A stretch of 64,000 nucleotides of DNA from Actinomycetota bacterium. Lineage in GTDB: Bacteria > Actinomycetota > Thermoleophilia > BMS3ABIN01. Positions 1 to 56,412 of the stretch are shown piece by piece (position 1 is the stretch's first letter; every line of letters begins with the position of its first letter). The notes under the pieces are model-generated. The model was not told the DNA's origin and did not search any database. It saw nothing but the letters and a program-made list of their open reading frames with translations. Made by a program: the position numbers and the translations under genes. The stretch spans positions 115,173 through 179,172 of the forward strand of contig JAMCPM010000002.1 of NCBI GenBank assembly GCA_023382335.1, read 5' to 3'.

Positions 1-537
1 ATGTTGGTTTCGATTTTGATCTTCTCAGTGATCATGGCGGGAATGTTCACCTTCCTTTGGGGGGCCAGTAGCCATTGGCAGACAGGCAAGAATTCCGCCG
101 ATATGACCGACAATGCCCGGACGGGTTTAAATCGTATGACCCGTGAAATACGCCAGGCTTCTATTGTGACGGCGGCGCAGATTAACCAAATATCCTTCTC
201 GGTGGATTTCGGCACAGGGGCGGAGGTCATTACTTACGGTTTTACTCCTGGTGATAATGGAGCTCCCGGTCTCATCTGGCGTAGCACCACATCCGCTCCC
301 GATGTGCAATTGACCCTGGTAAGCGATGTACAGAGCATGCAATTCAGTTATTACGGTAACGATTACAAATGCGATGCCGACGGGAACGGGGTCATAAACT
401 GGAGTGAACTGGTAGCCTGCAGTACATCGCCGGCCTCGAAGATCGCGAGGGTCGACATTAGTCTGGCAATGCGTGCTGGAAATGAGAATGACCAGACCTT
501 TACCGACCAAGCTTGGCTAAGAAACCGTGTTATTTAA
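1..537 (+). CDS. type IV pilus minor pilin-like protein (PilW/PulJ-like), 5'-truncated by window edge
   Basis: ORF runs in from the window start. A hydrophobic N-terminal stretch (prepilin-type helix) is followed by a beta-rich region. It overlaps the start of the PilX-like gene by 11 nt. Assigned by architecture only. Confidence 0.35.
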   Translation: MLVSILIFSVIMAGMFTFLWGASSHWQTGKNSADMTDNARTGLNRMTREIRQASIVTAAQINQISFSVDFGTGAEVITYGFTPGDNGAPGLIWRSTTSAPDVQLTLVSDVQSMQFSYYGNDYKCDADGNGVINWSELVACSTSPASKIARVDISLAMRAGNENDQTFTDQAWLRNRVI

Positions 538-1882
538 ACAAATGAAACTCGAAATGAAATCAGCGAAAATGGAAAAGATCAATTGGCATGATGAAGACGG
601 CGTGGCTCTTATCACGGTCATCTTTCTTGCTGCCATTCTTATGATGATGGGCGCAGGAATGTACTTCGTTGCCAGCCGGGAGGGCAAGATGTCCGCAGCT
701 GATTACGCTGGCGGTCAGGCTTTTTCGTACGCTGAAGGTGGGATTGAGAACGTAATGAACATCCTCAACTATGCAGGAACTGAATATCAATTGACTCGCC
801 AACGGGCCGACCAGAGCCCGGATGGATTCGGCTATCTTATGGATCCTGATCCAACCATGAGACAGACGCCTACAAACCCGATAGTGATGTCAATTGGGAA
901 CCAGAACTACACAGTGTCGGTCGACGAAGTCGACCAGAATGGCAATCATTGTGCGGGCTGTGGGTTGAACCTGTCCAATATTAGCCCTGCTTATTTGTTG
1001 ATTACGGCCGAGGGCCAGTCTTCCCAAGGTTATCGAAAACTGCAACAGCGCGTGCAGCTGGAGCCTAGCAATTACCCCCTGACATTCTTCATCGACGGAG
1101 ATGTCAACATGAACGGTAGCCCTGTTATCTCCGATCAAAGTATTTATGTGCGGGGCAATTTCTATGGCCGTGAGAAATTGACGATTTCGGGAACAGACCA
1201 GATCTATGGCGGCGGCGCCGGCGTCAGGTCAACAGGGTCAATATATGCAAAATCAAACGGCGGCAATACGCAGATATTTACCTCTTCCGGGGGACCCAGT
1301 AGTTACTGGGCGTCGAATTACGTCAATGACAGGGATAGTCGCGGGCCTACCGGCAATACTTTTTCCGCAGCTGAGCTCAACAATACGTTTAGCACCAGCG
1401 GCCTCACTGCCAGCCAGTTGGCTATTTTGAAATCTGCCGCAAAAGCGTCTGGCTATTACAACGGCAGTGCTAGTGGCAACATAACGATCCAGCAGAATGA
1501 TCTGCCTAATCGCGCGGGGGACGTGGTCATATATATCGAATATCCGTCAGGCACTCCCAATTCGAACGAGGTGGATCTCAAATTTGAATGGCCAAATCAA
1601 CCTACGTATACAACCGGTAAGGCTTTGGTGGTCGTAAAGAATGGCAGTGTTAAGCTTACCGGATCGGCCATAGGAGATATGCAAGGCGTAATCTATTGCC
1701 CCGATGGTCAGGCGAGATCCGACGGGAGCGGCAACGGTATCTTCACCGGTTATATCTGGTCCAAGGGACTGACGAACATCGGCAACTTCACTTTCAAGAT
1801 GGACACGCAAATGGTCGGAGATCCACCTTTCTTCGCTTGGACTGTGACACGCGATACCACCTGGACCGAAGTGGATAGGTAG
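527..1882 (+). CDS. PilX N-terminal domain-containing pilus assembly protein (large minor pilin)
   Basis: N-terminal segment DGVALITVIFLAAILMMMGAGMYFVASREGKMSAADYAGGQAFSYAEGGIE resembles the PilX_N domain (hydrophobic helix, then AxxAxxxAExG). Long Gly/Ser/Thr/Asn-rich C-terminal region is typical of large minor pilins/adhesins. Confidence 0.45.
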   Translation: MLFKQMKLEMKSAKMEKINWHDEDGVALITVIFLAAILMMMGAGMYFVASREGKMSAADYAGGQAFSYAEGGIENVMNILNYAGTEYQLTRQRADQSPDGFGYLMDPDPTMRQTPTNPIVMSIGNQNYTVSVDEVDQNGNHCAGCGLNLSNISPAYLLITAEGQSSQGYRKLQQRVQLEPSNYPLTFFIDGDVNMNGSPVISDQSIYVRGNFYGREKLTISGTDQIYGGGAGVRSTGSIYAKSNGGNTQIFTSSGGPSSYWASNYVNDRDSRGPTGNTFSAAELNNTFSTSGLTASQLAILKSAAKASGYYNGSASGNITIQQNDLPNRAGDVVIYIEYPSGTPNSNEVDLKFEWPNQPTYTTGKALVVVKNGSVKLTGSAIGDMQGVIYCPDGQARSDGSGNGIFTGYIWSKGLTNIGNFTFKMDTQMVGDPPFFAWTVTRDTTWTEVDR

Positions 1883-2066
1883 ATAGCCAACATAGATACC
1901 CGGACCGCTGACGCGGTCGTGCGGTTGTATTTAATAGGTAAACGGTTCGCGACAGCGGGCTGTTTAATTTTTTCAAAACTGTTTCGGCCGCAGGTAAACA
2001 GGAAATAATTGCGAACACTAGCTCGTCAACCTCGAATCCCGTCTGATCGTGAGGCTCGGAGCCGCG

Positions 2067-4865
2067 ATGGATTATCATCAGCTCTCCAACCAGGACCTGT
2101 TAAGTGAGCTCAAAACCGGAGCTGGCGGATTGGCGCCGGAAGAAGCGACTTCACGGTTGGAACATTATGGCCTCAACGAGATAACCGAGGCCAAGAAGAC
2201 TCCCCTCGTACTTCGCCTAGCTTCCAACTTCTATCATACATTCGCATTACTGCTGTGGGTGGCGGGAATCTTGGCGTTCATCGCTGGTTTGCCTGAACTG
2301 GGGTGGGCGATCATCGCGGTCATTTTTATTAATGCCATCTTCAGCTTCTGGCAGGAATATCAAGCGGAAAAAGCGGTTGAGGCCTTGAAACGGATTTTAC
2401 CTGCTCGAGCCCGTGTCATCCGGGGAGGGGAAATCACGGAAGTTCTGGCCCAGGAACTGGTTCCCGGTGACATGATGGTTCTCCAGGAAGGTGATAATAT
2501 CTCCGCCGATTCGCGACTGATCGAGGAAAGTAATCTAAGGGTCAACGCTGCCGTACTCACTGGTGAATCCGAGCCTGTCCGCAAGATGGCACAACCCGTT
2601 ACCGGAGAAGGACTCACCACGAGCGAGATACCCAACCTTGTGCTTGCGGGAACAAGTGTTGCCCTGGGGACTGCCAGGGCGGTCGTTTTTGCCACAGGTA
2701 TGAATACCGAGTTTGGCAAGATTGCCGCACTGACACAGACTGTCAAGGTCGAGCTGAGCCCGCTGCAAAAAGATGTTAACCGCGTAGCCCTGATTATCGC
2801 TGGCGTAGCCATCGTCATGGGCACCGCGCTATTTGGTGTCGCAGCCCTGTTTACTCCTTTAAGTTTGGGAACCGCTGCTATTTTTGCAATCGGCATGCTG
2901 GTCGCCAATGTTCCTGAAGGACTACTGCCGACAGTGACTCTCTCATTGGCGATGGCAGTCAAGCGAATGGTACACAGGCACGCTCTGGTCAAGCGTCTTT
3001 CGGGAGTCGAAACGCTAGGAAGTACGACGGTCATTTGCACGGACAAAACGGGAACTTTGACTCAGAATGAAATGACGGTTCGCCATTTGTGGGCGAGCGG
3101 CAGATTGATAGATGTCAGTGGGGTCGGTTATAAACCTAAAGGAGAATTCACAATTGACAATGCGCCAATTGATAAAGATGCGTCCGCAAAACTCGAGCCC
3201 TTGGCTCAAATAGCCGCTCTTTGCAATAACGCTCGCCTGATAAAACCAGAAGGAGAACATACTCGTTGGGGAATCGTCGGTGATCCCACGGAGGCGGCGT
3301 TACTTGTTGCCGCCGGCAAGTGGGGTTACGACTGGGCCGATGCCCTCAAGGCTAACCCACGAGTCAGCGAGCTTCCATTTGATTCGAAGCGTAAACGCAT
3401 GACCGTGATCCACCACATTGAAAGTTTCGCGAATTCCGGTGCCGTGGAGCCTGGCAATAAAGCGGCTTTTCCGTACATTGCTTACGTAAAGGGAGCTCCC
3501 AAAGAAATTCTCTCTTTATGCTCCCGAATCCTTATGAATGGGATAGAGATCGGTCTTTCCGACGAGCAGCGGCAAATAATCATCGACCAGAATGACGATC
3601 TGGCCCGAGGTGGCCTCAGGGTGCTGGCTATGGCTTTCCGAATGTTGCCTGATGGAATCGATATATCTCCAGAAAATATCGAGCAGGACCTGTCATTTAT
3701 GGGACTGATGGCAATGATGGATCCGCCTAGGACCGAAGTCGAGGCGGCAATCGGCCACTGCCAGGATGCCGGCATCAGGGTCATCATGATCACCGGTGAT
3801 TATGGACTCACGGCAGAGTCCGTGGCTCGGCGCATTGGACTGCTCGGTACCGAAGCGGCCCACATCGTTAATGGCGCCGACCTCGAGAAGATGCCGGACG
3901 CCCAGCTCAGGGAGGTCGTCGAGGAACCTCACATACTGTTTGCACGCGTATCACCAGAACACAAGATGCGAATCGCGGCGGCGTTGAAAGAAAAAGGCGA
4001 GATTGTCGCCATGACAGGTGACGGTGTTAATGATGCGCCCGCGCTTAAGACCGCCGATATCGGCATTGCCATGGGAATTTCTGGCACGGACGTCGCCAAA
4101 GAGGCGGCGACGATAGTACTCACTGATGATAATTTTGCCAGTATTGTCGGGGCCGTCGAAGAGGGACGGGTTGTCTACGATAATATGAAGAAGTTCCTGG
4201 CCTACATCTTTGCGCATCTGACTCCGGAGGTGGTACCGTTTGTAGCTTTTGTGCTTTTTGATGTGCCGCTGCCACTGACGGTGATGCAGATTCTGGCGAT
4301 CGATCTGGGCACTGAAACACTGCCCGCTCTTGCGCTTGGTGTAGAGAAAGCTGAGCCGGACATACTGAAGAGGCCTCCTAGATCGAGGAAGGAGAAGCTG
4401 GTGGATGTTTCGATGCTGTTACGGGCATGGGTTTTCCTCGGAGTCATAGAAGCAGCTCTGGTGATGGCAGGCTTTTTCTGGGTAATGTATTCAGGTGGCT
4501 GGAGTTGGGGTCAATCCCTAGCCGCTGATGACCATCTATACCTGGAGGCGACCACAATGACATGGGCCGGCATCGTTGCTACGCAGGTCGGGACCGCATT
4601 CGCCTGCAGGACCAATCGGGTTTCAGTCATTAAGGTAGGCTTCTGGTCAAACAGGTGGCTGCTATGGGGAATCCTGTTTGAGATAGTGCTGACTATATTG
4701 ATTGTTTACCTGCCGCCCCTGCAGAGAGTCTTCCAGACCACAGGCCTGGGTTGGCAGCAATGGGTTGTGCTGTCGACGTTTCCAATTATCATGTTTGTCA
4801 GCGATGAACTCCGGAAGTTGCTTTCGCGAAGATTGTCCGCAACCGCTAAAGGAGGAACGAAATGA
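2067..4865 (+). CDS. cation-transporting P-type ATPase (P2/P3-type, Ca2+/Mg2+-like)
   Basis: Phosphorylation motif CTDKTGTLTQNEM; hinge motif MTGDGVNDAPALKTADIGIAMG; TGES (LTGESEPV); PEGL in TM4; about 10 TM segments; cation-ATPase N-terminal domain. ATG at 2067 chosen over in-frame GTG at 2049. Confidence 0.9.
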   Translation: MDYHQLSNQDLLSELKTGAGGLAPEEATSRLEHYGLNEITEAKKTPLVLRLASNFYHTFALLLWVAGILAFIAGLPELGWAIIAVIFINAIFSFWQEYQAEKAVEALKRILPARARVIRGGEITEVLAQELVPGDMMVLQEGDNISADSRLIEESNLRVNAAVLTGESEPVRKMAQPVTGEGLTTSEIPNLVLAGTSVALGTARAVVFATGMNTEFGKIAALTQTVKVELSPLQKDVNRVALIIAGVAIVMGTALFGVAALFTPLSLGTAAIFAIGMLVANVPEGLLPTVTLSLAMAVKRMVHRHALVKRLSGVETLGSTTVICTDKTGTLTQNEMTVRHLWASGRLIDVSGVGYKPKGEFTIDNAPIDKDASAKLEPLAQIAALCNNARLIKPEGEHTRWGIVGDPTEAALLVAAGKWGYDWADALKANPRVSELPFDSKRKRMTVIHHIESFANSGAVEPGNKAAFPYIAYVKGAPKEILSLCSRILMNGIEIGLSDEQRQIIIDQNDDLARGGLRVLAMAFRMLPDGIDISPENIEQDLSFMGLMAMMDPPRTEVEAAIGHCQDAGIRVIMITGDYGLTAESVARRIGLLGTEAAHIVNGADLEKMPDAQLREVVEEPHILFARVSPEHKMRIAAALKEKGEIVAMTGDGVNDAPALKTADIGIAMGISGTDVAKEAATIVLTDDNFASIVGAVEEGRVVYDNMKKFLAYIFAHLTPEVVPFVAFVLFDVPLPLTVMQILAIDLGTETLPALALGVEKAEPDILKRPPRSRKEKLVDVSMLLRAWVFLGVIEAALVMAGFFWVMYSGGWSWGQSLAADDHLYLEATTMTWAGIVATQVGTAFACRTNRVSVIKVGFWSNRWLLWGILFEIVLTILIVYLPPLQRVFQTTGLGWQQWVVLSTFPIIMFVSDELRKLLSRRLSATAKGGTK

Positions 4866-5509
4866 AAATCGTAGTTCTCGGCTGTGGCAGAGTTGGCTCA
4901 CAGTTGGCCGGAGCCCTTTATGTCGAGGGTCACGACGTTTCCATTATCGATAAGGATCCCAAGGCGTTTCGACGGCTCAATCCATCATTTCAAGGGAAAA
5001 TCGTGACTGGTGTTGGTTTTGACCGGGATGTTCTCATCGATGCTGGCATCGAGCGCGCAGACGGCTTCGCCTCAGTGACAAATGGGGATAACAGCAATAT
5101 CATTTCCGCCTTGATAGCCAAACGCGTTTTCAGGGTTCCACGTGTGGTTACAAGGATTTACGACCCCATGCGAGCGAATATTTATAAACGGTTTGGAATT
5201 CCGACAATCTCCTCTACCGTCTGGGGCGCAAACGGTTTGCGCGAGCATCTGCTTTACCGGGAGATGAGGAGCGAGCTTAGTTTCGGCAGCGGTGAGGTCC
5301 TCCTGTTGGAGTTTGAGGTGCCTGTAGGCCTTGTCGGGCGCTCGGTGGCTGATCTCACTGTCGAAGGGCAGGCTCTGATTACATGCGTGGTCCGATTGGG
5401 GCAGGCCATGGTGCCTTCCGGCGCCACAGTCTTCAGAGAGGGCGATCTCATATTCGCCTGCGTCGCAAACGGCTTTCTTGGCAAATTCCGGGAATTACTC
5501 GGATATTAG
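4862..5509 (+). CDS. TrkA/KtrA-type RCK protein (TrkA-N NAD-binding + TrkA-C)
   Basis: MKIVVLGCGRVGSQLAGAL Rossmann GxGxxG at the N-terminus, 215 aa. ATGA overlap with the ATPase stop (translational coupling). Confidence 0.8.
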   Translation: MKIVVLGCGRVGSQLAGALYVEGHDVSIIDKDPKAFRRLNPSFQGKIVTGVGFDRDVLIDAGIERADGFASVTNGDNSNIISALIAKRVFRVPRVVTRIYDPMRANIYKRFGIPTISSTVWGANGLREHLLYREMRSELSFGSGEVLLLEFEVPVGLVGRSVADLTVEGQALITCVVRLGQAMVPSGATVFREGDLIFACVANGFLGKFRELLGY

Positions 5510-5518
5510 GAGGTTTCC

Positions 5519-6175
5519 ATGAATGTCCTTATCGTTGGCCGAGGCAGGACCGGCGCTTATCTAAGTGAGGCGCTGGCTGAAGCTGGCACACACAGGGTAG
5601 TGGTGGTGGAGTCGAGTGAGAGCCGTGCGGCGCAATCGGCGCCGGCTGGTGCCAGGGTGATGTGGGCTGATGGTTGCGATCCCTCCGTCCTCGAGGAGGC
5701 AGGAGTGCGAAACTCTGACCTCGTGGTAGCCACAACCGGGGACGATGAGGACAACCTCGTCGTCGCGCAGTTGGCAAAACTGCACTTCGGCGTGTCCAGG
5801 GTCATCGCCAGGGTGAACAATCCACGCAACTATTGGCTATATACCAAAGAATGGGGCGTGGATGTAGCTGTTTCGCCAACCGATATCATCACCAAGATAA
5901 TCGAAGAAGAGATGTCTCTGGGAGATCTGGTGACTCTGCTGAAGCTCAAGGGCGGCGAGGTCGCGCTGGCTGAGATCACCGTCACTTCGGGTTCCAAGGC
6001 AGCCGGAAAGCTCGTCAGCGATCTCTCTCTGCCTAAAGGATCGGTGATCGTCGCCATCATGCGTGGCGGTGAAGTGATTGTACCTGGCGGCCAGACACAG
6101 CTTCTGACCAACGATGAATTACTGGCTATAACCTCGGTGCAAAAAGAAAGCGAACTGATGCAGGCGCTGCAGTGA
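5519..6175 (+). CDS. TrkA/KtrA-type RCK protein (second copy)
   Basis: MNVLIVGRGRTGAYLSEALAEAG Rossmann motif; 218 aa with TrkA-N plus TrkA-C layout; 9 nt after the first copy. Confidence 0.8.
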   Translation: MNVLIVGRGRTGAYLSEALAEAGTHRVVVVESSESRAAQSAPAGARVMWADGCDPSVLEEAGVRNSDLVVATTGDDEDNLVVAQLAKLHFGVSRVIARVNNPRNYWLYTKEWGVDVAVSPTDIITKIIEEEMSLGDLVTLLKLKGGEVALAEITVTSGSKAAGKLVSDLSLPKGSVIVAIMRGGEVIVPGGQTQLLTNDELLAITSVQKESELMQALQ

Positions 6176-6810
6176 TGGATAATAGGAAAATTATTGACAT
6201 CTCGGTTCCGGTTTTTAGCGGCATGGCCTCTTATCCCGGAGACCCTGGAGCGGAAATAAAGCCGTATCTGGAGATATCGCGAGGCTCCGTAGCCAACATA
6301 TCCCAGTTGAAACTGGGCTCTCATACCGGAACCCATATCGATGCTCCTCGTCATTTCAAGGATGGCGCGATGCCGGTAGATGAACTATCGCTCGATATTC
6401 TGGTTGGTCCGGCGCGAGTCGTGGACATGTCCCGGGCAGAGTCATCGATTTCACGTGACGATATTGAGAACGAGGATCTTGGAAGCGTATCCAGGCTTCT
6501 GATCAAGACCACAAATTCTGCTCTTTGGGAAAAACCCGATTTCCAAAGGGATTACGTTCCGCTGTCGTCCGAAGCCGCGGACTATCTGGTGGAATTAGGG
6601 GTGAGCCTGGTGGGGATCGACTATCTTTCGATAGAGCGTTTCAAATCGGACACACATGCCGTGCACCATGCCCTGCTTGGATCTGGCGTCATCGTTCTCG
6701 AAGGCATCGATCTGCGCGGGGTCGAAACCGGCGATTACCAGCTCGTTTGCCTGCCGTTGAAAATTCGGGGTGGAGATGGCGCCCCGGCCAGAGCGATTCT
6801 GATTGCCTGA
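6172..6810 (+). CDS. cyclase-family protein (kynurenine formamidase-like metal-dependent hydrolase)
   Basis: Motif GSHTGTHIDAPRHF (HxGTHxDxPxH) characteristic of PF04199 cyclase/arylformamidase family. GTGATG start overlaps the TrkA stop. Confidence 0.75.
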   Translation: MMDNRKIIDISVPVFSGMASYPGDPGAEIKPYLEISRGSVANISQLKLGSHTGTHIDAPRHFKDGAMPVDELSLDILVGPARVVDMSRAESSISRDDIENEDLGSVSRLLIKTTNSALWEKPDFQRDYVPLSSEAADYLVELGVSLVGIDYLSIERFKSDTHAVHHALLGSGVIVLEGIDLRGVETGDYQLVCLPLKIRGGDGAPARAILIA

Positions 6811-6846
6811 TCCCGAGTTTTCGTGACCGAATCGAGAATCGTGTAA

Positions 6847-9072
6847 CTACTCTGTGACGATAGTCCTTATCGTCCCCATCTTCTCGGTCACGACGAAGGA
6901 AGTGACGTCGACGTCGCGGCGGAACTTCAGCGAGATTGCGGCCTTGCCGACCCGCAACCCCTTAACGTCGACCTCATTGAGCCACTTGGGAAGCACCGGA
7001 CTATTGACATAAAGTGTGTTTGAGGGGGCATCGGCCTCGATGCCGAGAAGCGCCTGGAGAATCATGAAAATGCTGCCTGCCGCCCAAGCCTGGGGACTAC
7101 AGGCGACCGGATAGTTAACCGGTCGGCTGATGGAACGCTTTGTGAAGCCGCAGAACAGCTCGGGTAGGCGGTAATAGTCATAATGCAGCGCCGCATCGAA
7201 AAGTCCGCTTGCTACCTTCGAAGCTTCCGGGTTGAAACCGTACTTTTTTAGCCCCCTGATGATGATGGCGTTATCGTGCGGCCAGACGCTACCATTGTGG
7301 TAGCTCATGGGGTTGTAGTTGATCGAGGCTTTGCTCATCGTCCTGATACCCCATCCAGAGAACATGTCGGGCTGCATCAGACGGTCGGCAACGAGCTGGC
7401 CTTTATCTTCATCGATGATGCGCGCCCAGAGGCCATGGGCAGGGTTTGAAGTGATGGTCTTAACCTGCCTCTTTTCTCTATCCAGAGCCATGGCATAAAA
7501 TCCTTCGCGGGGCATCCAGAAAGCCTCATTGAAACGGTGCTTGAGCGTTTCAGCTTGCCCGGAGAGCTCCTCTGCCCGTTCGCGGTCGCCAAGCAGCTCG
7601 AACAACTCAGCCATCCGTCGCTTTGCGTAATAAACGTATGCCTGTACTTCCGAGAGGGCTATAGGAGTTTCCGCCAGGCTACCATCGGTATGAACCACCG
7701 AATTACCAGAGTCTTTCCAGCCCTGATTGACGAGGCCGCGCCTGGATCGGGTTTCGTATTCGACAAAGCCATCCCCATCGATATCCCCATATTCATCGAT
7801 CCAGCCGAGAGCATTAGTGATGGCATCGCCCATGTTGCGCGCGATTTCGAGATTGCCCGTCCATTTCACGATATCGGAAAGCATTATCAGGTAAAGCGCT
7901 GTCGAGTCGGCGCTGCCAAAATACGGCGTATGAGGTATAGCCCGGATATTAGCCAGTTCCCCGCGTCTTACTTCGTGAAAGATTTTGCCCGGCTCCTCAT
8001 CTCGCCAGGGGTCGACTACTTTCCCTTGCAGTTGGGTGAATACATTGGCTGTGGCAGTAGCCGGATGCGAATCCAGCATCATGATCTGTAGGCAGGTAAT
8101 GATGGTGTCGCGGCCGAACGGGGTGACAAACCAGGGAACGCCTGCACTGAGGAAGTAGCCCATCTCAGTCTCGGTTTCGAGCATGCGGATATCCCGCTGA
8201 CTGCTTCTCAGCACAGCAGTGAACAGTTCGTTGTCGGTCTCGATCTGGCAAGAGCCTTTGAACCAGGACTCGTAGCTTTTTCTGACGTCGCCAATCGCCT
8301 TGTTGAAATCAGTGGCTACCGGCGGGTGCGTAGTTGGAAGGATAGGCTCGATACTGTATTTGACGACACGCCTCTCCCGCGGCTTCAGTTGGAAACGGAA
8401 GATCGCGGTTGTACCTTCAATGCGAGTGGGAGGCGTCTCCATACGGATGTCTGTCTTTCGAAGGATGGCATCGAGGCCGTGGTAGGCGAGCAGGATGGAA
8501 TCCTCGGTAACTTTGGGAGCCAAACGGGTCCCGTATTTGGTGCGCTTGGTGCCACGAACCTCGAACATGTCGGCAAAATCAGAGTCGAAATCAAACTCAA
8601 GCGAGATATCTACGGGAAAATGATTGTAATTCTTTATCCGGATGAGCTCGTAAAGTTTGCCATTTACGACACGGATGCGCCGGATATTGATCGTTTCCTG
8701 CGGCACCACCGTGCCGTCAGCGCTCATGAAGTCGGCATTGGTGAGTTCGATCTGGCTCATGAACCCCCGGTCTGCCGTTGAGGAAAGCAGCACAGGATTG
8801 GAGCCGAAAAGGGTCATGTCGAAAGTACTGAGGAAACGGGTGTCCTGGAAATATAAGCCCAGGCCGGACGTATCTTCCCGAGAAACATTCCCTTCGATAT
8901 CGCTGTAAAGAAACAGCTCACCTTCTTTAACGACGAGCTTTTCCTTTTTAACGTCAACGATGACAAAAGGCTCGCCCTGGGCAAGCACGCGGCTGGAGTC
9001 TTCCGTGAGAACCTGGAAGTACTCATCACCGATTTTGATCTGTTGTCCGTTGGTCACGTCTTGGCCTGGCAT
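6847..9072 (-). CDS. amylo-alpha-1,6-glucosidase / glycogen-debranching-enzyme-like glycoside hydrolase (GDE_N + six-hairpin GDE_C)
   Basis: 741 aa. C-terminal half has (alpha/alpha)6 glycosidase signatures (GLVNQGWKDSGNS, MSYHNGSVWPHDNAII). N-terminal beta-sandwich region resembles the GDE N-terminal domain. Confidence 0.6.
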   Translation of the reverse strand: MPGQDVTNGQQIKIGDEYFQVLTEDSSRVLAQGEPFVIVDVKKEKLVVKEGELFLYSDIEGNVSREDTSGLGLYFQDTRFLSTFDMTLFGSNPVLLSSTADRGFMSQIELTNADFMSADGTVVPQETINIRRIRVVNGKLYELIRIKNYNHFPVDISLEFDFDSDFADMFEVRGTKRTKYGTRLAPKVTEDSILLAYHGLDAILRKTDIRMETPPTRIEGTTAIFRFQLKPRERRVVKYSIEPILPTTHPPVATDFNKAIGDVRKSYESWFKGSCQIETDNELFTAVLRSSQRDIRMLETETEMGYFLSAGVPWFVTPFGRDTIITCLQIMMLDSHPATATANVFTQLQGKVVDPWRDEEPGKIFHEVRRGELANIRAIPHTPYFGSADSTALYLIMLSDIVKWTGNLEIARNMGDAITNALGWIDEYGDIDGDGFVEYETRSRRGLVNQGWKDSGNSVVHTDGSLAETPIALSEVQAYVYYAKRRMAELFELLGDRERAEELSGQAETLKHRFNEAFWMPREGFYAMALDREKRQVKTITSNPAHGLWARIIDEDKGQLVADRLMQPDMFSGWGIRTMSKASINYNPMSYHNGSVWPHDNAIIIRGLKKYGFNPEASKVASGLFDAALHYDYYRLPELFCGFTKRSISRPVNYPVACSPQAWAAGSIFMILQALLGIEADAPSNTLYVNSPVLPKWLNEVDVKGLRVGKAAISLKFRRDVDVTSFVVTEKMGTIRTIVTE

Positions 9073-9399
9073 GGCTTTCTCTTCGGTCTATAGCACAGAA
9101 TATGAAGTTTACTAACGGACTCTTGCGGGAATTGAACGTTCACAAGTTTTTGGAGCGGGTCCGGCGGCTGCCGTCTTTTCCCACAAAAAAATGATTAAGG
9201 ATCAGATTTATTGGCGTATTGTAGCACAACACCGGGCTGCACCCGGCAAGCAGAAACGCCATTGGCATCGCCATCGAGAACCGGGTTTTTCCGATTCTGA
9301 TCATTATTTCTTTTACCCGGATTACCGGGCTTCACAAGCAAGAATGAATATTGCTAAACAGGTCATGTATCCGTTTGGCTCGTTCAAAGGAGGCAAATA

Positions 9400-10869
9400 A
9401 TGGACGCGAAATTTTTCTCCCGGGGCAAGAGCGTCTATAACCGGGCCAAACACGAAGGGGCCGAGAGGCTGCTGAGCCAGGCGCTCAAGGTGTTGGCGCA
9501 CTCTCCGGACAGCAATTACCAGAGGTTGGCGCAAGCATTGGGGAAAATGGCGAAGAGCAAACAGCAGGCGTTGGTCGCTGACTGGTTCCAGGGTTATCTC
9601 GAGCCTGGAGGAGTCGGGACTCAATATTTTAACAGGCTGCTGAAGAATGTGGATCCCAACGTCCGCAAGAACTACATCGCCAAGACTATGGTTGGTCTGT
9701 TCTATCGCGATCCCGAGGTTTCCATCAAACTGATGGAGTCCGAAGGTATCAGCGCTCCCAATCTTGTAGTTATCTCACCCACAATGCGATGCAATCTCGA
9801 CTGCGTCGGCTGCTACGCTGGCAACTATACCAAGGCGGATGATCTCGATCCGGAGGTCATGGACAGGGTTATAACCGAGGCAAAGGAGCTTGGCATCCGC
9901 TTTTTTGTAATCACCGGCGGCGAGCCTTTTGTTTACCGGCCGCTGCTAGGGTTGTTTGAGAAGCATAGCGAAGTATCGTTTCAGGTATACACAAATGGCA
10001 CCCTGATAGACGAGATGATGGCGGAAAGACTGGTCGAGCTCGGAAATGTCGCGCCTGCGATCAGCATCGAGGGATTTCGCAAGGAAACCGACGCCAGACG
10101 CGGCGACGGCACCTACGACCGCGTGCTTCGCGCCATGGATAATTTAAGGGAAAAAGGCGCCGTATTCGCCTTCAGCGCTACCGCGTCAAGGCTGAACATA
10201 GGAACGATCACAAGTGACGAATTCGCTGACATGATGATTGAGAAAGGAGCCGCTTATGGCTACTACTTCTCCTATGTACCAATTGGCAAATCGCCTGATT
10301 TGACATACATGCCAACGGCCCAGGAACGAAACCGGCTTCGTCTGGGGGTAAGCAGGATACGAACGGAGAAGCCAATACTGGTCGCTGATTTTTGGAACGA
10401 TGGCTACCTGACCGGGGGTTGCCTCGCGGCTGGCCGCAAATATGTACACATCAACAATCATGGCGATGTGGAGCCGTGCGTGTTTTGCCACTTCGCCACG
10501 GATAATGTCAACGATGCGACACTACTCGAGGCTCTGCAGTCACCGTTTTTCAAGAGCATCAGGGCGCGTCAACCATTCGGGCACAACCTGCTAAGACCTT
10601 GTCCGCTCATCGATCATCCGGAAGTTCTTCGCCACGCGGTCAAAAAGCACGGCGCCTACGCTACTCACGATGGCGCCGAAAGCCTTGTGACCGACTTGAG
10701 CCAGGGCCTCGATAGCTATGCCAGGGACATTGAAGAAGTAGCCGATCCAGTGTGGCAAAACGATTTCAGTTGGACGGAGGATTGGCTGACGAATGAACAA
10801 AAGGCGGCAGCGGACAGATCCGAGGATCTGATGCGCCGCGATCGCGCCGCTCGTTCCCGGGTGGTCTGA
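9400..10869 (+). CDS. radical SAM protein with ~120-aa N-terminal extension and C-terminal Cys-rich (SPASM/twitch-like) region
   Basis: CX3CX2C motif (TMRCNLDCVGCYAGNY) and GGEPF glycine-rich SAM motif (ITGGEPF). Extra cysteines in GGCLAAG...EPCVFCH...RPCP. No clear match to a characterised subfamily. Confidence 0.75.
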   Translation: MDAKFFSRGKSVYNRAKHEGAERLLSQALKVLAHSPDSNYQRLAQALGKMAKSKQQALVADWFQGYLEPGGVGTQYFNRLLKNVDPNVRKNYIAKTMVGLFYRDPEVSIKLMESEGISAPNLVVISPTMRCNLDCVGCYAGNYTKADDLDPEVMDRVITEAKELGIRFFVITGGEPFVYRPLLGLFEKHSEVSFQVYTNGTLIDEMMAERLVELGNVAPAISIEGFRKETDARRGDGTYDRVLRAMDNLREKGAVFAFSATASRLNIGTITSDEFADMMIEKGAAYGYYFSYVPIGKSPDLTYMPTAQERNRLRLGVSRIRTEKPILVADFWNDGYLTGGCLAAGRKYVHINNHGDVEPCVFCHFATDNVNDATLLEALQSPFFKSIRARQPFGHNLLRPCPLIDHPEVLRHAVKKHGAYATHDGAESLVTDLSQGLDSYARDIEEVADPVWQNDFSWTEDWLTNEQKAAADRSEDLMRRDRAARSRVV

Positions 10870-20455: not shown

Positions 20456-22213
20456 ATGCGATCTTCTTTTACGCGGACCAGGGCATTTCTTTATTGCGTA
20501 GCAGGGGCGGCAGCGGGTCTGATCTATGCCGTCTTTGCCTATCTCATCGTTGCCAGGTTCGGCAGTGACCATGAAGCCATGCATATAGGTGTAGCGCCCA
20601 TCCTTGCAGGAGCTGCCGCCTATGTGATTGGCAGGGAAGCCGACCGCATAAACAAGCAGTCACAAATGCTTGCCGACGCCAAACAGCAATTCTCCGCCCT
20701 GACCCATGCCGCCATCACCCAGCGAGACTGGAATGTCAGCTTTGAAGATCCTCAGATTCCCACTTGCTGGGAAGTGAAGAACTGTGAGGCCAAGGATTGC
20801 CCTTCATACGGTAAACATCATGTCCGTTGCTGGCTGGTCGCCGGGACCTTCTGCCGCGGTGAAGTCCAGGGGCGCTTTGCCCAGAAGCTCGGTGACTGCG
20901 CTAAATGCGAGGTCTACCAGCTTTCGACCGAACGGGATCCCATCGATGAGATCGGTGAGAATTTCAACAGTCTGATGTGGGCCTTGCGCGAGAAAGAAGA
21001 GATGCTCTCCGAAACGAATGATGAGTTGCAGAGCCAGTACGGTGAACTCGAGCTGTTGCACAGGCAGGCACGTGAGCGAGCGGATACGGATATGTTAACC
21101 GGCTTGCGCAATCACGCGCATTTTCAGGATCACCTTCACAGTGAAGTCGAAAAGGCCCTGGCGCTAAAACAGCCGCTGTCACTAATCATGCTCGACCTGG
21201 ACCGGTTTAAATCCGTCAATGATGAATTCGGCCATCAGAAAGGGGATGAGGTCCTGCAGCTGGTTGGCAAGCTGATCCGCGATGAGATCGGGAATTCGGC
21301 TTATGGAGCGCGGTATGGGGGCGAGGAGTTCGCTATCGTCATGCCTTCGACATCAGCGAAGCTGGCAATTGAGACAGCTGATAACCTGCGTCGCCGAATG
21401 AAATCTTTAGAAGATGAAGTCAGTCTGCCGCCGGGATTCGTAGGCGGCAGCTTTGGAGTGGCTGATCTGCCCCATTGTGCCAGTGACGCCGACAGCCTGA
21501 TATCCGCATCTGATGCGGCCCTTCTGTTCGCCAAACGCAAAGGGAGGGACCGGGTAGCATATTTCCGTGATCTTTCTGACACGGAGCTTCGCGCTGGTGA
21601 CATGGACAAGCTTCACAGCCGTCTCGAGGGAGCCAGCCTGCAGACTATTCGTGCGCTGGCCGAGGCGGTCGACGCCAGCGATCAATATTCCAAATGCGAC
21701 CAGTCGCAGATGGCCAGAGTTGCAGCAGCAATGGCTGAGCGGCTTGGTATGGAGGAGGAGAAAGCCGATGCCCTGGCACTGGCGGCGAGGCTGCACGACA
21801 TAGGCAAAGTGGGTGTCCCGAGCTCGATCCTGCGGAAGAAGGAAAAACTGTCGCCGGCAGAGCTGTTACTGGTTCAGCAGCACCCTGCGATCGGCCAACG
21901 TCTCCTAAAGGAAGTCGAACAGATACAGGAGTTGATCCAGGCAATCCTCTATCATCACGAGCGCTGGGACGGCCAGGGATATCCCGAGAAGCTCAGGGGA
22001 GAACAGATTCCGGTAATGGCCCGCGTGATCGGTATCATGGATGCTTACCGGGCGATGCTCAGCGATCGCCCCTATCGCAAGGCGCTCACTCCCGCCGCAG
22101 CGATTCAGGAGTTGCGCAAGGGAGCCGGGAGCCAGTTTGATCCGCAGCTCGTAGAGATATTTGTCGAGTTGATCGGCAAAGACCAGGCTCCGAAGCTGCG
22201 GCATGCCGGATGA
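20456..22213 (+). CDS. membrane protein with conserved 8-Cys module + GGDEF diguanylate cyclase + HD-GYP phosphodiesterase domains
   Basis: Two TM helices; Cys module CWEVKNCEAKDCPSYGKHHVRCWLVAGTFCRGEVQGRFAQKLGDCAKCEVY; GGDEF with RYGGEEF; HD-GYP with HDIGKVGVP and HHERWDGQGYP. Confidence 0.85.
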   Translation: MRSSFTRTRAFLYCVAGAAAGLIYAVFAYLIVARFGSDHEAMHIGVAPILAGAAAYVIGREADRINKQSQMLADAKQQFSALTHAAITQRDWNVSFEDPQIPTCWEVKNCEAKDCPSYGKHHVRCWLVAGTFCRGEVQGRFAQKLGDCAKCEVYQLSTERDPIDEIGENFNSLMWALREKEEMLSETNDELQSQYGELELLHRQARERADTDMLTGLRNHAHFQDHLHSEVEKALALKQPLSLIMLDLDRFKSVNDEFGHQKGDEVLQLVGKLIRDEIGNSAYGARYGGEEFAIVMPSTSAKLAIETADNLRRRMKSLEDEVSLPPGFVGGSFGVADLPHCASDADSLISASDAALLFAKRKGRDRVAYFRDLSDTELRAGDMDKLHSRLEGASLQTIRALAEAVDASDQYSKCDQSQMARVAAAMAERLGMEEEKADALALAARLHDIGKVGVPSSILRKKEKLSPAELLLVQQHPAIGQRLLKEVEQIQELIQAILYHHERWDGQGYPEKLRGEQIPVMARVIGIMDAYRAMLSDRPYRKALTPAAAIQELRKGAGSQFDPQLVEIFVELIGKDQAPKLRHAG

Positions 22214-22235
22214 TTAGCCGGGCGATGCTCTCGTT

Positions 22236-24032
22236 ATGATCGATTTCCTCTCGAAAAGATTGTCATCAATGAAGCGGATCCTGTTTGTGATGCTAGCTTT
22301 CGGCTTGTCCATAGGCCTGGTGTTCCCATATATCGCCAGCCCCTTTGTCACATGGGATCCAGAAAAGAAGATCTATTTCCGCCTTGCATGCCTGGCCGCG
22401 GGTCTGGCCGTAGGCTCATTCTGTTATTACCTCGTTAAGATCACCCTTTATCAGCGCAACAAGATGCTTGCCCTCCAGAAACGCGAACTGGAGGAAGCCA
22501 AATCTCGCTTCGGTTCATTGACCCATAATGCCATCGAATCGCAGATGTGGGATGTGAGCTTCGAAGATTCACGGGTTCCGACCTGCTGGCAGACCAAGGA
22601 TTGCAGCCAGGGGGATTGTCCCGCTTTCGGACGGGAACATCTGCGCTGTTGGTTGATAGCCGGGACTTACTGTGGGGGCCAGATACAGGGCCGGTTTGCC
22701 CAGAAGCTCGGTGACTGTTCCAAATGCGATGTCTATTTGCAGGCGGTTGGAGAAAATCCTATCAGCGAGATCGGTGAAAACTTCAACAGCCTGATGCTGG
22801 CCGTCAGGGAGAAGGAGGACCTGCTGGCGGCTGCTAACGAGGAACTGAAAGATCAATATATTGAGCTGGAGCTGCTGCACAGGCAGGCGCGTGAGATGGC
22901 AAACACGGATCTGCTCACAGGGTTGCGAAACCATGCCCATTTTCAGCATCATATCCGCTGGGAGATCGATAAGGCCGGGCAAGGCAGCCTGCCGCTTTCT
23001 CTGATCATGCTCGATCTCGACCATTTCAAGTCAATTAACGACAGCTACGGGCATCAAAAAGGAGACGAAGTCCTCAAGCGGGTCGGCAAGAAGCTCAGTG
23101 AAGAGATTAAGAGTGGGGGCTACGCCGCCAGATACGGCGGCGAGGAGTTTGTCGTCCTGTTGCCGGGCTCGGTGGCAGAAAAGGCGATGGCCATCGCCGA
23201 CAGGTTGAGAGACAGCATCAAGGAGATCGCCGGCGAGATCGAGCTGCCCCAACGGGCAGTCGGCGCCAGCTTCGGTGTGGCCGATCTGCCTGAGTGTGCC
23301 AGCGATGCCGGCAGCCTTATCTCTGCGGCCGATTCGGCGTTGCTTTTTGCCAAGCGCCGGGGGCGCGACCGGGTAGCATATTTCAAGGACCTCAACGGCA
23401 CCGAACTCCAGGAAGGCGATGTCGAGCGCCTGCACAATCGGCTCGAAGGCGCCAGCCTGCAAACGATCCGGGCGCTGGCCGAGGCGGTCGACGCCAACGA
23501 CGACTACACGCTAGAGGCCAGCAGTTCCATGGATGGCGTCGCGGCTGCCCTGGCCGAGCAGCTCGGCCTCGATAAGGAGCAGGCGGACACGCTGTTTCTG
23601 GCCTCGAGACTTCACGACATCGGCAAAATCGGTGTGCCGGGGTCCATCCTCAGGAAGACAGAGAAACTTTCAGTGGAAGAACTGGCAAAGCTGCAACAAC
23701 ATCCCGAAATCGGGCAGCGGATACTCCAGGAAGCGATGCAACTCCAGGATCTGATCTCCGCCATTCTCTATCATCACGAGCGCTGGGATGGGACCGGCTA
23801 TCCCGAGAGGCTTCATGGTAAGCAGATTCCTCTGACGGCGCGGATCGTCGGCATCATGGATGCGTACCGGGCAATGCGCTCTGACCGCCCTTACCGCAAA
23901 GCGCTTAGCCGCGAGAACGCGATCACCGAACTCGAGAAGGGAGCCGGCACCCAGTTCGATCCACGGCTGGTAAAGAAGTTCGTCGAGCTTGCCCGCCAGG
24001 ACAACGTCGAGAAATTTCGCCGCGCCGGTTAG
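22236..24032 (+). CDS. paralogous 8-Cys module + GGDEF + HD-GYP membrane protein (tandem duplicate)
   Basis: Same architecture: CWQTKDCSQGDCPAFGREHLRCWLIAGTYCGGQIQGRFAQKLGDCSKCDVY; RYGGEEF; HDIGKIGVP; HHERWDGTGYP. Confidence 0.85.
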   Translation: MIDFLSKRLSSMKRILFVMLAFGLSIGLVFPYIASPFVTWDPEKKIYFRLACLAAGLAVGSFCYYLVKITLYQRNKMLALQKRELEEAKSRFGSLTHNAIESQMWDVSFEDSRVPTCWQTKDCSQGDCPAFGREHLRCWLIAGTYCGGQIQGRFAQKLGDCSKCDVYLQAVGENPISEIGENFNSLMLAVREKEDLLAAANEELKDQYIELELLHRQAREMANTDLLTGLRNHAHFQHHIRWEIDKAGQGSLPLSLIMLDLDHFKSINDSYGHQKGDEVLKRVGKKLSEEIKSGGYAARYGGEEFVVLLPGSVAEKAMAIADRLRDSIKEIAGEIELPQRAVGASFGVADLPECASDAGSLISAADSALLFAKRRGRDRVAYFKDLNGTELQEGDVERLHNRLEGASLQTIRALAEAVDANDDYTLEASSSMDGVAAALAEQLGLDKEQADTLFLASRLHDIGKIGVPGSILRKTEKLSVEELAKLQQHPEIGQRILQEAMQLQDLISAILYHHERWDGTGYPERLHGKQIPLTARIVGIMDAYRAMRSDRPYRKALSRENAITELEKGAGTQFDPRLVKKFVELARQDNVEKFRRAG

Positions 24033-47769: not shown

Positions 47770-47940
47770 AGCAATGTCTTCGGGGCGGGGTGGAATTCCC
47801 CACCGGCGGTAAGAGCCCGCGACCCTCTTTCGAGAGGCTGACCAGGTGCAAGTCCTGGGCCGACAGTCAAAGTCTGGATGGGAGAAGATAAGCTATCGGC
47901 TTTGCCCTGGGATGGTCTGTGTCCAGGGTACTTTTTTTTG
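47770..47940 (+). promoter_or_regulatory. FMN riboswitch (RFN element) with intrinsic terminator expression platform
   Basis: Conserved RFN cores GTCTTCGGGGCGGGGTGGAATTCCCCACCGGCGGTAAGAGCCCGCGACC and GACCAGGTGCAAGTCCTGGGCCGACAGTCAAAGTCTGGATGGGAGAAG (P1 CTTC...GAAG). Followed by CCCTGGGATGGTCTGTGTCCAGGG + T8 terminator. Immediately upstream of ribD. Confidence 0.85.
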
Positions 47941-48082
47941 GACGGCCGTCCCCGGCGGCCGCGGGTCCGTGCGGGCCTGACTTGCGTACGGATCTTCCTC
48001 CCTCGATTCCCCGAGATTATCAGTGCCAGCGCCGATGTTTAACGAAATCGCGGCGCCTGGCGATAAGGGAAGATATTTTACG

Positions 48083-55104: not shown

Positions 55105-56412
55105 GTGAAGCTTCTCCCCAAAAGCAACAGCCGGGCGGCCAGAGATCTGCTGATAATCGCAAGCCTGTCTGTCGTCGTCTTCATCCTTTCCTTTGTCTTT
55201 GAGATCTTTGAGGTATTCGTGGAATTCTCCCAGAGTCACGAGTACACGCAGCTCGACGAGCTGATTCCGGTTTTTGTCTACCTATCGATAGCGTTTATGA
55301 TATTCGCCGTGAGGCGATGGCGGGAGGCGGAGAAAGAAAAGGGGCAGCGCGGCGAGGCGGAAAAACATGCGCTGGCAAGAAACCTGGAGCTGTCTTCCCT
55401 TTACGAGATAACCTCGGCCATCGGCAGGACCATGGATATGCGAGAGCTGTTCGCGGCTGTGCTCGACAAGATCGTCAATCTGGATATGCTCGGGATGGAA
55501 ATCACCGGCGGCGTCGCCTTCGTGTCCGATGAAAGGCGTTTGAGGCTGCTGGCTTCAGAGGGCATGTCGCCTAAGTTTCTGGAGTTGCACAGCGACATGA
55601 GGCCCGGTCAGTGTCTCTGCGGCCTCTGCGCCGAAAATGGAGAGATCATCACTTCCGAGGATTGCGATGAAGACGAGCGCCATACGATGATCGATCACTC
55701 GATCCCCAGGCACGGCCGCGTCATCGTGCCGCTGAAGGCCAAGGACCGCGTCGAAGGGGTCCTCGCCCTTTACACCGAAGCCGGAGTTCATATGGAAACC
55801 GGGACGCTGCAGGTCCTCGGCTACGTAGGCAACCAGATGGGCATCGCTCTGGAGAACCTCAAGCTGTACGAGCGGACGCGGCAGATGTCGCTGCACGACC
55901 CCCTGACGGGCCTGGCCAACCGGCGCCTCCTTTTCAGCGAGCTGGAGCATATGTACGCCGGCGCCAGGCGCCATAGCCGGCCGCTTTCGGTCATAATGCT
56001 GGACCTCGACCATTTCAAGGATTACAACGATGCCCACGGTCATGCTGCCGGAGACCGGGTGCTCTCGAGAGTCGCCTCGATCGTCACCAGGGAGACCCGC
56101 AAGGAAGACGTGGCCGCCCGGTATGGCGGCGAGGAATTCCTGCTGGTGCTGCCGGAGGCGGACTCGAAGTGGGCGATCGCCATCGCCGAGAGGATCAGGA
56201 GGGATGTTGAATCAGCCGGGTTTGCCACCGAAGAGGAAACGGCCGGCTTTTCCCGAATTACGCTGAGCCTGGGAGTCGCTTCCCTGACCCCGGGCACTCA
56301 GAGCGGGGAAGCGCTGATCGGCCTGGCCGACCGCGCCCTCTATGCCGCCAAGAGAAAGGGCAGGAACAGGGTTGAGATCTATCACCAGGACGATGCCGCC
56401 GCGGCTTCCTGA
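55105..56412 (+). CDS. membrane-anchored GAF-GGDEF diguanylate cyclase
   Basis: Two TM segments, GAF region, GGDEF with RYGGEEF and MLDLDHFKDYND. Confidence 0.8.
   Translation: MKLLPKSNSRAARDLLIIASLSVVVFILSFVFEIFEVFVEFSQSHEYTQLDELIPVFVYLSIAFMIFAVRRWREAEKEKGQRGEAEKHALARNLELSSLYEITSAIGRTMDMRELFAAVLDKIVNLDMLGMEITGGVAFVSDERRLRLLASEGMSPKFLELHSDMRPGQCLCGLCAENGEIITSEDCDEDERHTMIDHSIPRHGRVIVPLKAKDRVEGVLALYTEAGVHMETGTLQVLGYVGNQMGIALENLKLYERTRQMSLHDPLTGLANRRLLFSELEHMYAGARRHSRPLSVIMLDLDHFKDYNDAHGHAAGDRVLSRVASIVTRETRKEDVAARYGGEEFLLVLPEADSKWAIAIAERIRRDVESAGFATEEETAGFSRITLSLGVASLTPGTQSGEALIGLADRALYAAKRKGRNRVEIYHQDDAAAAS

Follow-up and report, generated by a model that had tools for sequence, protein, structure and literature searches.

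What would a primary ion pump do with the regulatory proteins of a potassium transporter? The question is raised by a locus near the beginning of a 64-kb stretch of DNA from an actinomycetotal bacterium (contig JAMCPM010000002.1). The whole stretch is called the window below, and coordinates of the pump locus are window positions. Here the gene for a P2-type cation-transporting ATPase is followed by two genes for RCK proteins of the TrkA type, designated RCK1 and RCK2. RCK proteins are regulators of channels and secondary transporters (TrkH, KtrB, Kef, KhtU, MthK), and P-type ATPases are otherwise controlled through terminal autoinhibitory domains, small single-helix subunits or phosphorylation. 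An earlier note on this DNA had suggested that the RCK proteins regulate the pump. The results below establish the ATPase-RCK1-RCK2 triad as an ancient and widespread module, present in at least seven bacterial phyla, and our leading hypothesis is that the pump-linked split TrkA is part of an RCK-regulated cation transporter whose membrane unit is a primary pump.

Four co-directional open reading frames (ORFs), all on the + strand, make up the locus: the ATPase, RCK1, RCK2 and a cyclase-family gene. The ATPase gene (2067-4865) encodes 932 amino acids (aa) from the ATG at 2067, with a GGAG 5 nucleotides (nt) upstream; the length of 938 aa given in the earlier note is right for an alternative GTG at 2049 and does not apply to the ATG start quoted with it. 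At the ATPase/RCK1 coupling junction (4849-4865, + strand) a Shine-Dalgarno sequence, AAAGGAGG, lies 5 nt 5' of the RCK1 ATG (4862), which overlaps the ATPase TGA (4863-4865) in the arrangement aATGAaa. RCK1 (4862-5509, 215 aa) and RCK2 (5519-6175, 218 aa) are separated by 9 nt, and the RCK2 Shine-Dalgarno sequence, TAGGAGG, spans the RCK1 stop. The final gene of the operon, encoding a cyclase-family (PF04199), arylformamidase-like hydrolase (6175-6810, 211 aa, alternative start at 6172), shares one base between its ATG at 6175 and the RCK2 TGA (6173-6175; gTGATGg); this ATG is also the start used in public gene calls (211 aa). The ORFs thus bear out both overlaps and the 9-nt gap as first described. 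On the 5' side, a terminator-like hairpin (1939-1975, + strand), consisting of a 12-bp stem (1939-1966) and then a T-run, ATTTTTTCAA, is found 3' of a pilin-like gene, the ORF upstream of the hairpin stopping at 1882. This hairpin is the 5' boundary of the ATPase operon. On the 3' side of the cyclase-family gene lies a convergent glycogen-debranching-type gene (6847-9072). As the four genes are enclosed between the hairpin and the convergent gene, they form one operon.

Conservation of this arrangement was examined in one genome per species, which yielded 80 loci with pump relatives (43-75% identity). In 40 of these, the ATPase gene is followed on the same strand by an RCK1-type and then an RCK2-type gene. 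According to record titles, from which the taxa were taken, the triads are found in Chloroflexota (14), Bacillota (14, including Acetobacterium, Lachnospiraceae, Erysipelothrix and Marinilactibacillus), Actinomycetota (7) and, once each, in Bipolaricaulota, Thermotogae, Desulfuromonadaceae, a Pseudomonadota metagenome-assembled genome and an unclassified bacterium. In about 30 of the 40 triads the pump and RCK1 genes lie -4 to 45 nt apart, the ATGA overlap (-4) recurring at 12 loci besides the window, and RCK1-RCK2 gaps are mostly 0-18 nt. Genes 3' of RCK2 vary from locus to locus (rpoB, HtrA, AadA, hydrolases) and, because they are unrelated, the conserved unit consists of three genes. The three proteins co-diverge, with distance-matrix correlations of 0.87 for ATPase-RCK1 and 0.86 for ATPase-RCK2 (range over the three proteins 0.86-0.88; Mantel test, 0/2000). 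In a rough neighbour-joining tree the RCK-linked pumps are spread across a large clade. The module has spread between distant phyla as pump, RCK1 and RCK2 together.

The same association was seen from the RCK side. Close RCK1 homologues in public data are all annotated as 'TrkA family potassium uptake protein', and an ATPase gene lies immediately upstream in five of six sampled RCK1 clusters as well as in the window's own cluster. Seven full-length RCK1-type pairs have the pump upstream (P0094, P0084, P0066, P0109, P0065, the window cluster and Streptomyces fungicidicus p1, in which the annotated genes overlap). Combined, these results show that the pump and two TrkA-type RCK genes are truly coupled at the operon level. 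The earlier note had recommended such a neighbourhood survey and would have given up its idea had the RCK genes shown no co-conservation with the ATPase; they are co-conserved across the seven phyla. Its description of the arrangement as uncommon has to be replaced by the opposite, although no description of it was found. The last gene of the window operon has a different history. The cyclase-family protein matches PF04199 Cyclase (89 bits) and stays below the arylformamidase model TIGR03035 (165 bits for a cut-off of 223); the note had placed it correctly in the operon, but the gene is confined to the window and the loci most closely related to it (L001, L097-L099), and a part in the conserved module was rejected.

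Several triads have peculiar extensions or surroundings. Five RCK units follow the pump in L018, L023, L025, L032 and L109 (2467-15416), from Candidatus Solincola-like Actinomycetota; besides RCK1 and RCK2 they comprise a double-RCK fusion of about 470 aa and one additional unit. The L109 set is directly followed by a V/A-type ATPase operon. The triad of S. fungicidicus p1 (L100, 297683-301811) has stress- or dormancy-type surroundings, with three universal stress proteins, Hsp20, a nitroreductase, and DUF1876 and BON-domain proteins as neighbours.

What kind of pump is involved? Its Pfam domains (Cation_ATPase_N, E1-E2_ATPase, Cation_ATPase, Hydrolase and Cation_ATPase_C) constitute the complete P2-type architecture, the P-type ATPase superfamily model (HAD-IC, TIGR01494) is matched at 276 bits for a cut-off of 62, and the translation holds all catalytic motifs (DKTGTLT, TGES, MITGD, GDGVNDAPAL). 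NCBIfam scores are 646 bits for type IIC, 614 for IIA2, 388 for IIIA and 373 for IIIB, none at its curated cut-off: the model for P2C Na,K-/H,K-ATPase alpha (TIGR01106) requires 946 bits and is matched mainly by residues 1-594, and the P2A Ca2+-ATPase models (PMR1 or SERCA type) TIGR01522 and TIGR01116, which score 614 and 566 bits, require 798 and 703 bits, respectively. Since no curated subfamily cut-off is reached, we consider the protein a P2 pump without subfamily assignment, type IIC being the nearest. The low IIIA and IIIB scores led us to reject a P3-type pump, so that only the first half of the 'P2/P3-type' label in the earlier note is retained. In the PDB, Na,K-ATPase alpha chains match best (E ~1e-164), ranking above H,K-ATPases, the Listeria Ca2+-ATPase, SPCA and SERCA; no solved structure of a close relative appeared in this search. 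The operon contains no candidate gene for a beta subunit.

The ion site was analyzed by aligning the pump to Na,K-ATPase alpha-3 and comparing 87 pump sequences (Na,K-ATPase numbering). Most RCK-linked pumps retain the full set of side-chain ligands at K+ sites I and II (E327, S775, N776, E779, D804 and D808), with the motifs PEGLL in transmembrane segment 4 (TM4), YIFTSNxPE in TM5 and DLGTD in TM6, and most triad pumps have N at the Na+ site III position D926. On these residues, K+ counter-transport can reasonably be expected of the pump family. The window pump retains E327, E779 and D804 and carries the changes S775H, N776L and D808E; its motifs are YIFAHLTPE in TM5 and DLGTE in TM6, and TM8 has T at D926. 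Together with the L001 pump it forms a divergent ion-site subgroup defined by YIFAHLTPE, DLGTE and Thr at 926. A related ion site, in which the TM5 His is kept and TM6 reads DLGTD, is present in L019, in the second pump of L009 and in a Methanobacterium clade. In L009 (9968-17004) both types occur side by side, a canonical S-N-site pump being followed by RCK1, RCK2 and then an H-L-site pump like that of the window.

Gene neighbourhoods also bear on the ion. In three unrelated lineages the pump gene lies in or directly after a kdp operon: the order is kdpA-kdpB-kdpC-kdpD-pump-RCK1-RCK2 in Flexilinea (L047, 2463-14115) and kdpB-x-kdpC-pump-RCK1-RCK2-kdpD-kdpE in L096 (1-9751), and in Terriglobia (L063, 2685-12712) a pump without RCK genes comes after kdpABC and two KdpD sensor-domain genes. 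In [Clostridium] aerotolerans (L026), a Pfam-confirmed DUF4118/HisKA kinase, the KdpD-type core, and a response regulator are encoded directly upstream; L033 and L066 share this layout as judged by tblastn and ORF size, and the same kind of kinase accompanies the trkA-trkH operon of Cetobacterium. In Methanobacterium (L003, L005, L012, L064), whose pumps are the archaeal relatives closest to the window pump, the pump is followed by TrkH and one KtrA-like RCK gene, in many cases with a second TrkH after them. Combined, the kdp operons, the TrkH/TrkA genes, the KdpD-like kinases and the retained K+-site residues point to a pump family tied to K+ homeostasis. At L064, a convergent kdp operon adjoins the pump/TrkH block.

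The two RCK proteins are related to TrkA in a precise manner. RCK1 has a TrkA_N domain and a weak TrkA_C match (24.7 bits, just below the cut-off of 27), and RCK2 has both TrkA_N and TrkA_C. On the NCBIfam TrkA model (446 positions) RCK1 covers 1-217 and RCK2 230-444, and neither reaches the cut-off of 293 for single-chain TrkA (PRK09496 models; 129 and 145 bits, respectively). PDB matches are TrkA residues 1-217 and TM1088A for RCK1, and TrkA residues 235-435 and TM1088B for RCK2. As RCK1 fits the N half of TrkA and RCK2 its C half, the pair corresponds to a two-subunit TrkA. Each protein carries the GxGxxG motif of TrkA_N (PF02254) and, where beta-2 ends, the acidic ribose-binding residue (GCGRVG...IID in RCK1, GRGRTG...VVE in RCK2). 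Over 21 orthologues, G7, G9 and G12 of RCK1 do not vary, and its acidic residue, D30, is conserved to at least 90%; GxGxxG is kept in 45 of 49 RCK1 and 41 of 44 RCK2 sequences. Proteins of 450-471 aa in which RCK1 and RCK2 are fused turned up among the 150 top representatives of the RCK1 family and argue that the two act together. In some triads RCK2 is reduced to an N-only protein of 138-143 aa (L017, 13565-13981; L087, 8657-9296; L094, 5742-6173), and in L087, as in the identical contigs of other samples, the end of the N-only RCK2 is overlapped by a 93-aa ORF. These cases recall the frameshifted TM1088 locus of Thermotoga maritima and could represent a real two-piece gene or a recurrent frameshift.

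The conserved Rossmann motifs suggest that the ligand of the pair would be ATP/ADP or NAD(H), as in TrkA. Cyclic di-AMP (c-di-AMP), which the earlier note had listed beside these nucleotides, is disfavoured. The c-di-AMP signature of RCK_C domains in KtrA, KtrC, KhtT and CpeA, (I/L)(I/L)x2DxRx5N(I/L)(I/L), as quoted in PMC10117811, is present in none of the 49 RCK1 and none of the 44 RCK2 sequences, whether searched in strict form, in relaxed form or as the core DxRx5N, and an Rfam scan of the window detected neither a ydaO/c-di-AMP nor any other riboswitch ahead of the operon. The sole Rfam match in the window is an FMN riboswitch (RF00050, 112.6 bits; 47772-47893, + strand) upstream of a block of ORFs that begins at 48023.

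From these observations we infer how the module might work. The locus would be a self-contained three-gene K+-homeostasis module with a P2-type, Na,K-/H,K-ATPase-like cation pump as its membrane component. RCK1 and RCK2, co-translated with the pump, would assemble as a hetero-oligomeric ring, probably 4+4 as in TM1088A/B and TrkA, and the Rossmann domains of the ring would bind an adenine or nicotinamide nucleotide (ATP/ADP or NAD(H)). The ring would dock on the cytoplasmic side of the pump and switch it on or off, so that pumping, most likely K+ uptake against H+ or Na+, would track the energy and K+ state of the cell; the pump would thus stand in for the TrkH of canonical two-subunit TrkA operons. 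That a nucleotide-sensing RCK1/RCK2 ring directly controls the pump as its regulatory subunit is a proposition for which we see the chances as evenly balanced. The more specific version, in which nucleotide binding by a TrkA-type ring, itself physically docked on a P2 pump resembling Na,K-ATPase, gates that pump, is put forward with slightly more reserve. What the earlier note had proposed as regulation of a P-type ATPase by RCK proteins therefore stands as far as coupling and co-conservation are concerned, and direct regulation keeps its conditional form, the RCK1/RCK2 family occurring also unlinked to an ATPase.

Several observations weigh against direct control of a K+ pump by the RCK pair. 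Pumps without RCK partners in cyanobacteria, lactobacilli, Terriglobia and Methanobacterium form groups that lie within the RCK-linked clade of the tree or next to it, which argues that the pump can work without the RCK pair. A comparison of RCK-linked with RCK-less members gave no clean positions separating the two in the pump, the only cluster, at residues 502-538, being weak and confounded by phylogeny. None of the 150 best RCK1-family representatives, the longest of which has 471 aa, is an ATPase-RCK fusion. The loss of S775 and N776 (S775H, N776L) makes K+ transport less certain for the window pump than for its family. Finally, the homologous pair TM1088A/B of T. maritima works with a TrkH, stand-alone RCK pairs exist, and some of their hosts have a TrkH gene to offer.

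It is on this last group of observations that the first alternative is built. It holds that RCK1 and RCK2 are an ordinary two-subunit TrkA gating a TrkH or KtrB encoded elsewhere, the P2 ATPase being a co-expressed companion and not the client. The companion could be an electrogenic H+ or Na+ pump that gives the membrane potential for K+ uptake by Trk, or one that removes co-transported Na+; the pairing of Pma1 with Trk1,2 in fungi offers a likeness. We judge this alternative, the main rival, rather unlikely. The fit of RCK1 and RCK2 to the TrkA halves applies equally to TM1088A/B, whose TrkH partner is TM1089 (PMC4380455). Three full-length pairs stand alone (L081, L101 in Nonomuraea and L108 in Streptomyces BHT-5-2) and nest inside triad clades. 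Nonomuraea also has a TrkH gene without an RCK gene within 5 kb and no clear pump orthologue, its best P2 ATPase being 35-40% identical and devoid of the TM4 and TM6 motifs of the family. In Subdoligranulum an unlinked pair, with a short N-only A subunit and a B subunit, coexists with an unlinked TrkH. Unlinked pairs and unlinked TrkH genes in Nonomuraea and Subdoligranulum keep a distant trkH alive as an explanation, and the ATPase-TrkH-TrkA(-TrkH) loci of Methanobacterium also fit a partnership of a pump with Trk.

The distribution of TrkH argues in the other direction. As already remarked in the earlier note, neither TrkH nor KtrB is encoded in the 64-kb window, in which an ad hoc TrkH hidden Markov model applied to six frames and Pfam scans of the large ORFs gave no match. 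A TrkH gene lies inside none of about 45 bacterial triad operons, though trkA-trkH adjacency is common elsewhere; the sole TrkH near a triad, adjoining that of L017, has its own RCK gene. None of the full-length RCK1-type pairs placed in context from the RCK side is beside TrkH, and none of about 50 such pairs adjoins a TrkH that lacks its own RCK gene. The pairs that are linked to TrkH belong to a different subfamily: in canonical two-subunit TrkA operons (Acaryochloris pMB03, a Cetobacterium plasmid) a short N-only A subunit and a B subunit precede TrkH, the A subunits there having 137-142 aa (137-143 aa over all TrkH-linked systems considered) compared to 215 aa for RCK1 and the B subunits being 28-30% identical to RCK2. 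The pump occupies the operon slot that TrkH holds there. Moreover, spread of ATPase, RCK1 and RCK2 across phyla is expected of a self-contained functional unit, and the stop/start overlap of pump and RCK1 is typical for subunits made in a fixed ratio. Several PLSDB 'plasmid' records are chromosome-like multi-megabase replicons (NZ_LT559118.1, NZ_OL790811.1, NZ_AP026896.1 and others; examples are an 11.85-Mb Nonomuraea record and 4-Mb Proteus records), which is a caveat for plasmid statistics.

A second alternative gives the RCK ring several clients, the P2 pump and another K+ transporter (TrkH, KimA-like or other), which would share one nucleotide sensor. It would account for one RCK family being both pump-linked and unlinked and for the two pump paralogues around one RCK pair in L009, and the five RCK units that follow a pump by a V-type ATPase operon in some Actinomycetota suggest combinatorial RCK assemblies; being less parsimonious than either single-client model, it appears improbable to us. 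That the adjacency of pump and RCK genes is meaningless, through chance, hitch-hiking or an annotation artefact, might be argued from the pump relatives without RCK genes, but is effectively refuted, and in our view hardly conceivable, given an ordered triad of overlapping or near-abutting genes in 40 of 80 loci over seven phyla, the co-divergence of the three proteins and the strong domain matches and conserved motifs of both RCK ORFs.

If the ring does control the pump, a primary P-type pump would be a new class of client for RCK regulators, beyond channels and secondary transporters. Pump regulation would gain a new mode, the ring being the first soluble ligand-gated regulatory ring known for any P-type ATPase. 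Regulated K+ pumping would then be a function for the prokaryotic P2C-like pumps, so far an enigma. The same idea might account for the retention of TrkA-like pairs such as CeoB/CeoC in actinobacteria, for instance mycobacteria, for which no TrkH partner has been described. In the full-text literature we found no paper linking a P2 ATPase with RCK or TrkA proteins; most subscription journals lie outside that search, so an earlier description is possible. Since the triad is present in cultured organisms (Flexilinea flocculi, Ornatilinea apprima, [Clostridium] aerotolerans, Erysipelothrix, Marinilactibacillus and S. fungicidicus), direct control of the pump is directly testable.

The surroundings of the operon in the window have features of their own. 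The G+C content is 0.50-0.54 in the first 10 kb (1-10000) compared to 0.60-0.66 across 26000-64000, the low-G+C stretch comprising the pump operon together with the pilin-like genes before it and the debranching-enzyme gene after it. Horizontal acquisition of the pump region is possible and would fit the patchy phyletic spread of the module. The genes at 1-1882 (+ strand) resemble minor pilins of type IV pili (weak PilX_N match), and their relatives carry N_methyl pilin motifs. Further along, two tandem paralogous proteins of the GGDEF + HD-GYP type (HD_5; 20456-24032, + strand) and a further GAF-GGDEF protein (55105-56412, + strand) make up a c-di-GMP signalling cluster.

Among known systems, the closest to the RCK half of the triad is TM1088A/TM1088B of T. 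maritima (PDB 3L4B), a split TrkA pair whose crystal structure is an octameric gating ring (PMC4380455). There too, two adjacent, overlapping RCK genes encode the N and C halves of TrkA with nucleotide-binding Rossmann domains, RCK1 fitting TM1088A and RCK2 TM1088B. RCK1 differs in being full length (215 aa, with a C-terminal lobe), whereas the TM1088-type A subunit is N-only and has about 140 aa, and the membrane gene of the operon is a P2 ATPase upstream instead of a TrkH (TM1089) downstream. KtrAB/KtrCD and KhtTU, with RCK proteins that are c-di-AMP binders, likewise associate a soluble RCK_N + RCK_C protein, encoded beside a cation transporter, with regulation by a ligand; unlike these, the triad RCK proteins are of the TrkA-half type and not the KtrA type, and lack the c-di-AMP signature in all 93 sequences. 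Mycobacterial CeoB and CeoC are two adjacent full-length TrkA-like proteins of a K+ uptake system, described with no mention of TrkH (PMC13163235). In contrast to the triad, they are not adjacent to a P2 ATPase. The unlinked actinomycete pairs of Nonomuraea and Streptomyces belong to the RCK1/RCK2 family. CeoB/CeoC may do as well.

For the pump half, the best sequence match is the alpha chain of Na,K-/H,K-ATPases (P2C), which has the same PEGLL motif in TM4 and the same TM5/TM6 architecture. The triad pump differs from it in scoring below the IIC cut-off, in having no beta subunit gene in the operon, in the residue at D926 (mostly N; T in the window) and in its soluble RCK partner, to which nothing in eukaryotic pumps corresponds. 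Prokaryotic P2C-like pumps have been listed as uncharacterised and their function called an enigma (Palmgren 2023, PMC10654040). In physiological terms the nearest system is KdpFABC, also an ATP-driven P-type system of K+ homeostasis that needs post-translational shut-off, and the two are linked genetically by the triads embedded in kdp operons (L047, L096) and the L063 pump that follows kdp genes. Compared to KdpFABC, the triad is built on a 10-TM P2 pump without a KdpA-like subunit, and its accessory proteins are soluble RCK proteins.

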